From the NCBI GenBank assembly GCA_963705295.1, contig OY970065.1, forward strand, positions 1,472,001-1,536,000: a DNA stretch of 64,000 bases, given 5' to 3'. A model generated the notes under the pieces. That model saw only the letters and a list, made by a program, of their open reading frames with translations. It was not told the origin of the DNA and ran no database searches. Of the stretch, positions 41,200-48,557 are shown piece by piece. Each line of letters opens with the position of its first letter. Position 1 is the stretch's first letter. This stretch comes from Parachlamydiales bacterium. Lineage in GTDB: Bacteria; Chlamydiota; Chlamydiia; Chlamydiales; Rhabdochlamydiaceae. The translations under genes were made by a program, and so were the position numbers.

Positions 41200-41311
41200 A
41201 TAAAAACATGATTCGTAAGATATGCTTGATACGCGAGATAAAAAATTCTCGGTGTCTTAATTCACATCATGCATATCATGCGTATCCTATTGATCATGTA
41301 ATTTTGTCTCT
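41200..41311. repeat. Left 112-bp inverted repeat (self-palindromic)
   Basis: 103/112 identical to the reverse complement of 48446..48557. Confidence 0.9.
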
Positions 41312-42299
41312 ATTGATTGAGCAGTAAAACAGCGGAGCCTTCGAGTGTTCCCTCTCGAATGGCGGACAATGCTTGGTTGGCTTTTTCGAGTGGAAATGGG
41401 GTTGCTGAGACTTTTAGGGGAATTTTTTCTGCAAGCCGCATAAATTCGAGGCCGTCTTGCCTTGTTAGGTTGGCGACGGAGGAGATCGACCGCTCTTCCC
41501 AAAGAAGTGCGTAAGGGAAGGACGGAATATCGGTCATGTGAATTCCGGCGCTGATCACCTTGCCTCCTTTTTTAACCGTTTTGAGTGCTTGGGGGAAAAG
41601 AGCGCCGACCGGTGCAAAGATGATGGCTCCGTCTAAAGAAATCGGCGGCACTTGATCCGATCCTCCGGCCCATCTGGCTCCAAGAGAACGGGCAAAGGCT
41701 TGTTTTTTTTCATCGCCAGGCCTGGTGAAAACATACACATCCTGGCCCAGTGCTACAGCTATTTGAATCAATAAATGAGCCGATGAACCAAAGCCGTAAA
41801 AACCGATGGTTTTAGTCGGTTGTAACAGCCGAAAAGCACGGTAGCCTATAAGGCCCGCGCACAGAAGAGGTGCCGCCTGAAGGTCTGTGTAGCGGCTTGG
41901 CAGTCTCAATATAAAGTCTTCGTGGGCCGTACAAAACTCCGCATACCCGCCATTTTTCGTATAACCGGTAAAAACGGGATGGTCGCAGAGATTTTCCCGC
42001 TCCGAGTTGCAAAACTCGCAGGCTTGGCAGCTTTTTCCTAGCCATGGCACTCCTACCCGATCTCCGACTTTGTACCGAGTTACCTTTTCTCCCATTTTTT
42101 CGATCATGCCGACGATCTGATGCCCTAAAATGAGAGGTAATTGAGGAGTAGGCAGCTCTCCATCGACAATGTGAAGATCGGTACGGCACACTCCGCAAGC
42201 CCGAATTTTGATCAACACCTCAAAGGGTCCGGGATTGGGACGTGGAACCTCTCTTAAAACAAGCGGCTGCCCCATCTTCTCAAGAACCATTGCTCGCAT
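41310..42299 (-). CDS. Zinc-dependent alcohol dehydrogenase
   Basis: CGVCRTDLH, GHQIVG, C..C.FC....ENLC, GFYGFG. Confidence 0.92.
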   Translation of the reverse strand: MRAMVLEKMGQPLVLREVPRPNPGPFEVLIKIRACGVCRTDLHIVDGELPTPQLPLILGHQIVGMIEKMGEKVTRYKVGDRVGVPWLGKSCQACEFCNSERENLCDHPVFTGYTKNGGYAEFCTAHEDFILRLPSRYTDLQAAPLLCAGLIGYRAFRLLQPTKTIGFYGFGSSAHLLIQIAVALGQDVYVFTRPGDEKKQAFARSLGARWAGGSDQVPPISLDGAIIFAPVGALFPQALKTVKKGGKVISAGIHMTDIPSFPYALLWEERSISSVANLTRQDGLEFMRLAEKIPLKVSATPFPLEKANQALSAIREGTLEGSAVLLLNQ

Positions 42300-44700
42300 T
42301 ATTTGCCCCCCATCGATAAAGCAAAATTTTAACCCTATCTAGAATAAACATCCAGGCAAGGGTGTATACCCAAATTAACCCGATATACGACCATGGAATT
42401 GCAGTCATAACGACCCCTAAACCGACAAACAAGGCTGCAATCAATTGCGTGGATAAAATGGCGCCAATTAAAATAGGGGCCGGATAAGGTTTAGAAAAAA
42501 AAGCATTTTTTGTTCGGGCAATAAATAAGGTTTGGTGGCCAGCTAGGGATAGTTTCAGAAATATGAACGATTGTATCTGCGGGATACTCAAATTGAGAAG
42601 ATCTTTACCGAAGATCAGGAGGATAAATGATGAGAGAATGCCAACACCTCCCAGCCCGCTTGCAATCGTAAGAACCTGTCTCATCTGCCATTGAACAGGC
42701 TGTTTCTCCACCAGAGTATGGTCATAGGCTATTGCTAGAATTGGAATATCGTTGAACAGGGCAAGCAAGATGATCATGAGAGCGGTGACGGGATAGAAAT
42801 TGAAGATGAGGATGGAAGCGACCATAAAGAGCATCACACGTATCGTCTCGGCGATCCGATAAATCGCGTAGCTATTCATCCTTTCGAAGATACACCGGGC
42901 TTCTTCAATGGCCCTGATAATGACGGAAAGACCAGAAGCTGTTAAGACCAAAGAGGCCGATGCCCGGGCAGCATCTGTAGACCCGTCGACAGCAATTCCT
43001 ACATCGGCTTGCTTTAATGCTGGAGAATCATTCACCCCATCCCCTGTCATCCCGACAATGTGTTTTCGACTTTGAAGAGTTTTGACAATCTCGTATTTTT
43101 GCTCTGGAATAATTTGAGCAAACCCATCACTTTTTTCTATCTTCTCGGCAATTTCAGGTGTCTCCATAATGACGATGTTATCCCCAATTTTCAGCTGCCG
43201 GGCGATTTCTTTTGCAATCGCAATATTGTCTCCTGTAAGCATCTTTATTTTGATCCCGTGCTCCTGTGCATGACGGATGGTCTCGATCGAATCTTCTCTC
43301 AGAGGGTCAAATAAAGGTAAGAGACCGAGAAATTCCCAGCTTTTTCCATCTTTACTCCGAGCTACTCCCAGCGCACGATTCCCTATTTGTGCGAAATGAT
43401 CGATCGCTTTATCGATCTCTTGTTCAACCGAAGGTTGTAGATTGCAAAGAGCTGCAATCACCTGCGGTGCCCCCTTGGTGACATAGATAACATTTCCTTG
43501 AGGATCCCGTACCATCGCATCGGCCTGTTTCCTTATAGGATCGAATGGGATGAATTTCTCTAAAATGTAACCGTTCAATATTTCTCGATTTTTAACTCCC
43601 TTAAGAATTGCTAGATCAATCGGGTCTTGAGTTTCTGCTTGTGAAGTTAAAGCGGCATGAAAAATGACGGTTTGTTCATCAACGGCCCCGAAAACAACGG
43701 GGGTTCCCATCGTTAATTGATTTTGCGTGAGGGTTCCTGTCTTATCGCAACAAAGAATATCGATACCTGCCATCTCTTCTATAGATTCCAATCTTGTTAC
43801 AACAGCTTTCATCCTTGAGAGTCTCAAAGCACCCAGCGCCATCGTGACAGAGAGTACTGCTGGCATCGCGACAGGAATGGATGCAATCACAAGAATAAGG
43901 ACAAATTGAACGAGCTCTAAAAAAGGGGTACCCCGTATCAGCTGGGTGACAACCAGAATACATGCCAAAGCTAAACTCAAATAAATCAGATAATCGCCAA
44001 TCTGAAGAACAGCTTTTTGAAAATGAGAGACAGGTTTTGCTTTCTCGACCAGCTGGGTTGTTTTTCCAAAAAAAGTATTTTGACCCGTTGATATGACAAG
44101 GCCGGTCATTTCCCCTTGTTTCGCAATAGATCCTGAGAAAACGACTTCATCTATTTTCTTTGTCACAGGAAGAGATTCACCTGTCAATGTTGACTGGTCG
44201 ACTGTCAAATAATCCCCTTCTACGAGCTTCGCATCAGCAGGAATGATGTTCCCAAGTCTTATTCGAATCAAATCTCCTGGAACTAGCTCTGCCGCATCGA
44301 TCTCTAACCATTTACCATCCCGTTTCACAAGAGATTTAGGAGCCAGGTTTTTCTTCAGTGCTTTAATCGCATTCCCCGCTTGAAACTCTTCCCAAAAGTC
44401 AACAAGCCCATTCACAATGAGTAAAATCAAAATGATAATAAAGTCTGCAAAATGCCGAACAACAACAGATAAAATGGCAGCAATTTCGATCATCCAAGGG
44501 ATAGGACCCCAAAAATAAGCCAGAAATTTCCGAAAAATCGATTCCCTTTTCTCTTCAATGGTATTTCGGCCGCACTTTTGGAGACGGCCTTTCACCTCGG
44601 CATCATTGAGTCCCTCTTTAGTACTTTTAAGCAGGGCAAATAACTGATCGGATGTCTTTTGTTTAGCCTCCTCGGCACTGACAAAGCATCTATCGATCAC
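42280..44700 (-). CDS. Plasma-membrane-type (P-IIIA) proton-efflux P-type ATPase
   Basis: FWGPIPWMIE, TGES, ASIPVAMP, DKTGTLT, TGDGVND, YRIAET, LFND. Confidence 0.9.
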   Translation of the reverse strand: MIDRCFVSAEEAKQKTSDQLFALLKSTKEGLNDAEVKGRLQKCGRNTIEEKRESIFRKFLAYFWGPIPWMIEIAAILSVVVRHFADFIIILILLIVNGLVDFWEEFQAGNAIKALKKNLAPKSLVKRDGKWLEIDAAELVPGDLIRIRLGNIIPADAKLVEGDYLTVDQSTLTGESLPVTKKIDEVVFSGSIAKQGEMTGLVISTGQNTFFGKTTQLVEKAKPVSHFQKAVLQIGDYLIYLSLALACILVVTQLIRGTPFLELVQFVLILVIASIPVAMPAVLSVTMALGALRLSRMKAVVTRLESIEEMAGIDILCCDKTGTLTQNQLTMGTPVVFGAVDEQTVIFHAALTSQAETQDPIDLAILKGVKNREILNGYILEKFIPFDPIRKQADAMVRDPQGNVIYVTKGAPQVIAALCNLQPSVEQEIDKAIDHFAQIGNRALGVARSKDGKSWEFLGLLPLFDPLREDSIETIRHAQEHGIKIKMLTGDNIAIAKEIARQLKIGDNIVIMETPEIAEKIEKSDGFAQIIPEQKYEIVKTLQSRKHIVGMTGDGVNDSPALKQADVGIAVDGSTDAARASASLVLTASGLSVIIRAIEEARCIFERMNSYAIYRIAETIRVMLFMVASILIFNFYPVTALMIILLALFNDIPILAIAYDHTLVEKQPVQWQMRQVLTIASGLGGVGILSSFILLIFGKDLLNLSIPQIQSFIFLKLSLAGHQTLFIARTKNAFFSKPYPAPILIGAILSTQLIAALFVGLGVVMTAIPWSYIGLIWVYTLAWMFILDRVKILLYRWGANNASNGS

Positions 44701-48249: not shown

Positions 48250-48398
48250 AATCCCCCCCTTTCATTTATTATTAACTTTCGGATGAATTTTAATTCACAG
48301 CTTGTCAGCAGGGTTGGCTTATGAATAAGTTTTATGGGAAAACCAAATCCCATAAAGACTAATGTTTTGCTTTTGTTATCAGTTTTCTTCTTTTTCAT
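48234..48398 (-). pseudogene. Remnant of an antitoxin-like/HTH gene N-terminus
   Basis: MKKKKTDNKSKTLVFMGFGFPIKLI resembles the F.G.GFPI.L start of small HTH antitoxins; no HTH follows. Confidence 0.35.
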
Positions 48399-48445
48399 TG
48401 CTGTTCTCTTGTTACTTTCATAGCGGCAATAAAGCTTTTGATGCA

Positions 48446-48557
48446 AGAGACAAAATTACATGATCAATGGGATACGCCTGATATGCATGATGTGAAATAA
48501 GACACCGAGAATTTTTTATCATGCATATCAAGCATATCCCATGAATCATGTTTTTAT
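48446..48557. repeat. Right 112-bp inverted repeat (self-palindromic)
   Basis: Inverted partner of 41200..41311; internal 34-bp arms with 4 mismatches. Confidence 0.9.

Follow-up and report, generated by a model that had tools for sequence, protein, structure and literature searches.

Miniature inverted-repeat transposable elements (MITEs) of bacteria, such as the Correia elements of Neisseria, are non-coding units of 100-300 bp with terminal inverted repeats of about 40 nt that are dispersed in intergenic DNA. Eukaryotic foldback-type transposons carry long inverted arms made of short tandem subrepeats, which act as multiple transposase-binding sites, and they are linked to inversions. Here we analysed a stretch of 64,000 nucleotides from a Parachlamydiales bacterium of the Rhabdochlamydiaceae (contig OY970065.1 of assembly GCA_963705295.1, positions 1,472,001 to 1,536,000; hereafter the window), in which two palindromic repeats at 41200-41311 and 48446-48557 stand in inverted orientation around genes for phosphoketolase (xfp), acetate kinase (ackA), a proton-efflux P-type ATPase and an alcohol dehydrogenase (adh). 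The original prediction had taken this arrangement for a mobile or invertible unit that moves a metabolic operon. Our analysis favours, with a probability of roughly 0.6, another reading, in which the two repeats belong to a family of small, non-coding, MITE-like or foldback-like dispersed palindromes, of which they are copies in opposite orientation, and do not form an operon-moving device.

Like Correia-type MITEs, the repeat is small and non-coding, has terminal inverted repeats, is dispersed between genes, undergoes internal deletions and is nested with other small repeats. Unlike them, it comes without an observed target duplication or a parent insertion sequence sharing its ends, its arms consist of 9-bp tandem units, and its copy number is low (12 loci). 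Two copies of an end structure that bracket cargo genes also recall composite transposons and MITE-pair units, from which the locus differs in that it has no transposase and no target duplication and that the unit is seen nowhere else. With REP/REPIN sequences (see PMC3733652), the repeat shares inverted doublets able to form a long hairpin, an intergenic position and dispersal. It departs from REP/REPIN-RAYT systems in its arms, which are direct 9-bp repeats with a CATGAT terminus, are not palindromic and have no GTAG/CGTC head, and in having no cognate Y1 (RAYT) gene flanked by repeats. Arms built of tandem short units, here putative binding sites, are shared with foldback-type transposons (see PMC3688188), although these belong to another domain of life and another size class and no homology is implied. 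Full-text literature searches turned up no published description of the repeat family.

A dispersed family of palindromic repeats

As predicted, the two window copies are inverted relative to each other over 112 nt with 9 mismatches (92% complementary, 103 of 112 bases the same); the longest identical run between them is 23 bp, and the 22-nt core of the repeat has three matches in the window against none expected from 100 shuffles. The submotif GATAYGC with its 9-bp period is visible in both, as is the TTCTCGGTGTC spacer, in agreement with the earlier description. The statement that each repeat is a hairpin with 34-bp arms was only partly right. In the right copy the palindrome is clear, with arms of 41 nt that are 83% complementary and a DNA fold of -26.1/-28.2 kcal/mol (z -7.2/-7.6). 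The hairpin of the left copy is far weaker (-16.7/-14.1 kcal/mol, z -3.5/-2.0), and the inverted-repeat search that listed the right-copy palindrome listed no internal inverted repeat in the left copy; the left-copy hairpin has decayed. Both copies are recognised by an arm profile built from 16 arms: the left one has an A2-type arm at 41202-41246 (plus strand), a spacer at 41247-41258 and an A1-type arm at 41259-41303 (minus strand), with E values of 3e-11 and 9e-12, and the right one has an A1-type arm at 48454-48499 (plus strand), a spacer and an A2-type arm at 48511-48555 (minus strand), with E values of 4e-13 and 3e-13.

The genome is a single contig of 2.13 Mb, and BLAST together with the arm profile places the repeat at 12 loci, comprising eight inward-facing arm pairs (both window copies included), three outward-facing pairs and one degenerate solo arm. 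All 12 loci are intergenic, the ten outside the window pair enclose no cargo, and no recombinase lies beside any copy. The genome-wide search proposed with the original prediction thus returned a dispersed element, which is essentially the outcome that the prediction itself had named as speaking against it. The copies are 75-92% alike and have a core of 80-135 bp (281 bp in one copy) that contains short unconserved open reading frames (ORFs) only; they vary by internal deletions and by the extent to which two conserved outer flanks are kept. The 20 flanking or nearby genes that were scanned have unrelated functions (Sel1, LysM, PutA, a GroEL paralogue, secretin, amidase, ankyrin, F-box, SulP, PfkB and hypotheticals). 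Repeat neighbours are often eukaryote-like repeat proteins (Sel1, ankyrin, F-box, BTB/POZ; L169, L179, L180 and L184, and 49721-50992 in the window), several of which are absent at the same site in congeners. At another repeat copy, a degenerate group II intron of about 1.9 kb (G000:C1:813709-815602; Rfam RF02005, 120 bits), which starts with GTGCG and carries a broken RVT_1 reverse-transcriptase frame, splits the A2-type arm, its insertion point being just past the inner half of the hairpin.

The architecture of the arms was compared among 20 inward-facing elements from several genomes. Each arm consists of a terminal CATGAT and three GATA-core units at 9-bp spacing. In 17-20 of the 20 elements the two arms agree at the CATGAT and GATA-core columns, while the columns between the cores mostly differ from arm to arm (one of them matches in 2 of 20), and 519 of 720 arm-to-arm positions are able to pair. 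Because the cores are kept and base pairing is not, we read the arms as arrays of putative sites for a protein that recognises double-stranded DNA, much as transposon ends can offer their transposase several sites, and the hairpin would be a by-product of two GATA-core arrays facing each other. Mobilisation would then proceed through binding of the arms by this protein, for which a transposase provided in trans is the most likely candidate. Two other identities for the palindromes were considered and rejected. An RNA-strand signal from G-U asymmetry was dropped, as three C/T differences between arm types favour one strand here and give, by eye, a mixed pattern in another genome; and Rfam gave the right copy sub-threshold matches only, of which the best named was WsnRNA46 (31 bits against a gathering threshold of 65), and we read them as look-alikes of an A+T-rich hairpin.

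Outside this genome the repeat is patchily distributed. The arm pattern, with at most two mismatches allowed, has 21 matches in this genome, none in 18 species of the same genus and none for a reversed control, and BLAST found the repeat in none of the 18 congeners, several of whose assemblies are fragmented and may under-assemble repeats, while five have at most 20 contigs. Two other genera of the family carry arms of about 90% identity, at sites that are not orthologous to any here; by our own count, two other Chlamydiae genomes hold about 24 and about 9 repeat loci. One of the latter two genomes has many near-identical copies, which suggests recent spread there. A species-representative collection gave 93 arm-pattern matches, many of them in assemblies titled Chlamydiae or Parachlamydiales, and 56 of 80 fetched loci had an arm-profile match (4 of these weak, in non-chlamydial records) and 24 had none. 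Plasmid and phage collections gave no match to the repeat, and two viral-contig matches were rejected since they look like chance. Being patchy among close relatives yet conserved across distant ones, the repeat appears to be a horizontally moving element and not a host regulatory site. The family would have entered this lineage horizontally, and it is probably no longer mobile in this genome, where its copies show decay and no partner enzyme was found. Taken together, the kept GATA cores, the end-like arrays, the dispersal to non-orthologous sites and the absence from congeners agree with the earlier proposal that the repeats are multi-site ends of a recombinase or transposase substrate; its extension to the pair with its cargo as a mobile or invertible unit is not supported. 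The analysis documents a repeat family of environmental chlamydiae that carries multi-site putative binding arrays and whose copies mark variable genome junctions.

Two further repeat structures were seen among the carriers. In one other Chlamydiae assembly (L076, L106, L107, L126), copies of the arm element contain a nested palindrome of an unrelated kind, which measures about 160 bp and is flanked by 7-8-bp duplications of the host element sequence, so that this second family makes target duplications. At L147 (2250-3900) and L123 (2400-3800), non-coding tandem arrays with a period of 565-585 bp comprise three units, each of which holds one or more family arms plus another, perfect 35-nt hairpin.

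The enclosed operon and the pgl|tsaD junction

Gene and domain calls bear out that the pair tightly encloses four genes, which are co-oriented on the minus strand and overlap. The first is xfp (45880-48249, domain calls), followed by ackA (44690-45883, domain calls), a plasma-membrane-type proton-efflux P-type ATPase (42280-44700; TIGR01647, 939 bits, cut-off 615) and, as the last gene, adh of the Zn-dependent alcohol dehydrogenase family (41310-42299; TIGR02822, 318 bits). None of the four is a transposase or recombinase, as had been stated, and the 10 genes at 37886-52623 include no site-specific recombinase gene. On the left, pgl (6-phosphogluconolactonase, 40437-41162, plus strand, Pfam PF01182), the last gene of zwf-opcA-pgl and a conserved hotspot border, ends 38 bp from the outer side of the left copy, while the adh stop codon (41310-41312) overlaps the inner edge of that copy. 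On the right, the repeat lies in the divergent xfp/tsaD intergenic region, and tsaD (48656-49672, plus strand, Pfam PF00814), the other conserved border, starts 99 bp past it. An alignment of 8 copies with their flanks revealed a degenerate remnant of the family outer flank, beyond the A2-type arm, at 41166-41201, starting 3 nt past the pgl stop codon, and an inner flank, beyond the A1-type arm, at 48420-48453, which is common to four other family copies in the genome. Each window copy keeps family flank sequence that is lost from the other, so neither is a plain duplicate of its partner. The leader that separates the start of xfp from the right repeat has a hairpin with a 10-bp stem (48330-48357), which is terminator-like on both strands in the consensus scan.

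Relatives were then compared at the same junction (41162-48656 in the window; L066-L073 and L191-L214 in relatives). In four of 12 metagenome loci holding both genes, pgl and tsaD are 54-363 bp apart, and the other loci have 2.0-7.6 kb of other genes between them; the short junction, found in these four distant relatives, is the ancestral empty site. Eight of ten congeners have zwf-opcA-pgl, then 1.8-4.2 kb with TerC, a hypothetical gene and extras, and then tsaD, while in the other two tsaD has different upstream neighbours. Synteny of pgl with zwf/opcA extends to metagenome loci. Eight congener gap proteins, including TerC and its hypothetical neighbour, were tested, and nothing similar was found anywhere in this genome. 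In one metagenome contig another kind of P-type ATPase occupies the pgl|tsaD junction. Neither the pgl-tsaD loci nor the xfp loci of relatives yielded an arm. Since empty pgl-tsaD sites, which the original prediction had proposed to look for, do exist in relatives, the operon is an insertion. On this comparison of gene orders, xfp-ackA-ATPase-adh was inserted, in a lineage-specific event, at the ancestral junction of pgl and tsaD. This hotspot takes differing cargo per lineage and does so elsewhere without repeats; the junction offers a clear and reusable example of an integration hotspot. The repeats at its two borders may have arrived with the imported DNA, or they may have landed in the new, tolerant intergenic DNA. 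In the window, a 20-kb block at about 15473-35861 and the segment 49721-52900 (a BTB/POZ protein and its neighbour) are absent from congeners at those places and have no arms at their borders. As such lineage-specific blocks lack arms, repeats are not required for insertion.

The xfp gene occurs in 21 of 60 other genomes of the family, and in relatives' loci its neighbours include ackA in 9 of 10 cases, a P-type ATPase in 4 of 10 and adh in none of 10. In congener G006, xfp-ackA lies between orthologues of genes that are 110 bp apart in this genome; another genus has xfp-ackA-ATPase in the same order as here; and in yet another genus ackA-xfp-ATPase stands directly upstream of zwf-opcA-pgl, all co-oriented (L062). 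The identity of xfp to that of this genome ranges from 51 to 86% and does not track that of a marker gene (64-82%), and one genus has two xfp types. This varying context, with identities that depart from the marker gene, shows that the module has been exchanged or relocated repeatedly. Two types of phosphoketolase module can be told apart in the family, both of them within one genus: in the xfp-ackA type the ackA is close, and in the ackA-xfp-ATPase type it is only about 35% identical. None of the five xfp-ackA modules of relatives that were examined is bracketed by any repeat. The composition of the segment and its GC skew (-0.05 to -0.14) match the local replichore (-0.05). A donor among the four other carrier genomes was rejected, their xfp being at most 74% identical and not adjacent to elements, and a metagenome scan with pgl gave nothing closer than 73% identity.

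Chance proximity, variable junctions and alternative explanations

Among 12 random sites in 2.13 Mb, the probability of a gap of at most 7.4 kb is 0.375, and for 8 sites it is 0.18. By our own arithmetic over three genomes, three pairs lie within 8 kb of each other where about 1.9 are expected. Close pairs are no commoner than chance, and chance proximity is plausible. The genes enclosed by an 8-kb pair in another genome are of ordinary housekeeping type (aminotransferase, NfeD, flotillin and a YggS-like protein). A pair of inverted repeats enclosing a metabolic operon does not on its own make a mobile cassette, and a tempting false lead is removed.

The surroundings of the copies are more variable than those of other junctions. 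Relative to G006, gene content differs at 6 of 7 element-bearing junctions and at 13 of 41 others in the same loci (Fisher one-sided p 0.011), and with G004 comparisons added the counts become 11 of 12 and 17 of 62; both comparisons are to be read with the reservation that the loci were chosen for holding elements and that variable junctions are also larger targets. The seventh G006 junction shows replacement of a groES-like gene, and an eighth locus has as its neighbour a gene that in G006 is located elsewhere. In this genome a repeat copy (G000:C1:387784-388155) takes the place of the groES-like gene that congeners have between putA and the groEL paralogue (L233 4550-5031). The family members would thus generally sit at the edges of lineage-specific DNA, a habit that the window bracket fits. 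In Rhabdochlamydia, mobile-element positions coincide with synteny breaks between chlamydial genomes (PMC9723776); those are full insertion sequences with transposase genes, and small palindromic repeats are not mentioned in the available portion of that report.

Besides the selection of loci just described, several points weigh against the favoured reading. The window copies are each other's best match over 112 nt (92%, compared with 88-89% for others), and both have the same private variants, located in the spacer and the inner flank, which are absent from the next closest copy; together these hint at a common local origin and not at two unrelated landings. Both borders of the lineage-specific DNA lie within about 100 bp of a copy, and another genome has an 8-kb operon that is likewise enclosed by an inverted pair of identical arm polarity. 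With neither a target duplication nor an autonomous partner at hand, membership of the transposon world is something that we infer. Finally, the nearest relatives are about 75% identical in protein, which is too distant to time the events.

One possible extension, which we consider doubtful, would make the elements working ends or footprints of gene-block exchange among environmental chlamydiae, with a protein that binds the GATA-core arrays capturing or integrating segments. If true, it would explain why elements mark borders of lineage-specific genes, at 6 of 7 against 13 of 41 junctions, and here both borders of a complete operon for acid fermentation and proton extrusion are marked.

It is unlikely, too, that the operon was mobilised as a composite, a transposase in trans having used the outermost arms of the two copies to move repeat-adh-ATPase-ackA-xfp-repeat into the pgl|tsaD junction, as MITE or insertion-sequence pairs do. 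Two mobilisable copies do bracket cargo, they are inverted with the same arm type outward exactly at the insertion borders relative to the ancestral pgl|tsaD adjacency, they share the private variants described above, and the xfp-ackA module has moved during the history of the family. Several observations speak against it. As the original prediction itself had noted, no direct repeat of at least 5 bp flanks the composite, for which several boundary choices were tried, and the single window copies likewise have no target duplication of at least 5 bp, although A/T runs and conserved flanks make their true ends hard to place. This genome, the four other carrier genomes and the 80 loci gave no transposase with such ends, the bracketed unit was not found at other sites or in other genomes, and each copy keeps family flank that is missing from the other. 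The lack of any bracket around the five modules of relatives, the chance level of close pairs, the armless cargo at the same hotspot and the lack of recombinases beside copies all argue against the operon mover that had been proposed.

A still less probable alternative is that the pair is the product of an inversion, the second copy having arisen by intramolecular replicative transposition, or the segment having been flipped by recombination between the copies, so that the operon was once co-oriented with zwf-opcA-pgl. The genes between the inverted copies do point the other way from the neighbouring genes on both sides, and the all co-oriented ackA-xfp-ATPase-zwf-opcA-pgl order is found in another genus. 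The predicted junctions, however, have no inverted target duplication, the sole match being a 5-bp chance match, and homologous recombination would have had at most 23 bp of uninterrupted identity to work with, a marginal length. The GC skew of the segment fits the replichore and so does not point to a recent flip, there is no invertase in the vicinity (the recombinases of the genome are at 115, 557, 887 and 1192 kb), and the loss of TerC and its neighbour is left unexplained by this model.

We give equally little credence to a host cis-element, in which the palindromes would be selected regulatory or structural sites at operon borders, such as operator arrays for a host DNA-binding protein or bidirectional terminators or insulators: A and T runs adjoin the hairpins, convergent 3' ends face each other across the left copy, four copies sit 140-260 bp upstream of a gene start and the cores are strongly conserved across genomes, but the flanking genes have no function in common, different genomes have the repeat at non-orthologous sites, none was found in the 18 congeners, five of the 12 loci are, from a reading of their contexts, divergent regions without any 3' end, and the left hairpin has decayed. 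Nor did a consensus scan for promoters and terminators find anything at either copy, where T runs do follow the stems but the latter are long and A+T-rich, unlike the G+C-rich stem of an intrinsic terminator, and the inner flank has, by eye, no conserved -10 of an outward promoter. As a side effect of a dispersed repeat, hairpins with A/T runs might perhaps damp read-through transcription at the operon borders.

Candidate partner enzymes

Around the 80 loci, no arm pair spaced 0.6-3 kb apart was found save in the non-coding tandem arrays, and no protein recurs beside arms among 325 ORFs. In this genome rve and DDE_Tnp_1 had no match, in a search that covered some transposase families only. A link to RAYT/IS200 elements was rejected: the Y1_Tnp match of this genome is a broken fragment of 43 codons with a stop, a Y1 transposase is absent from three of five other carrier genomes, and none of 7 Y1 loci in carriers has a significant arm nearby. 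Should an enzyme that reads the arms come to light, some of the gene turnover of these intracellular bacteria might be accounted for.

The recombinases of the genome are three tyrosine recombinases and one IS607-like serine recombinase, located at 115, 557, 887 and 1192 kb and at least 320 kb from the segment. A link to the IS607-like element was also rejected, as the ends of that element are unlike the arms. The element (G000:C1:557283-559499) consists of a serine recombinase with an N-terminal MerR-type helix-turn-helix, followed by a tnpB-like gene that is split into two frames of 267 codons. A 33%-identical homologue of its recombinase lies 2.8 kb upstream of tsaD in congener G016 (L074 9599-10168).

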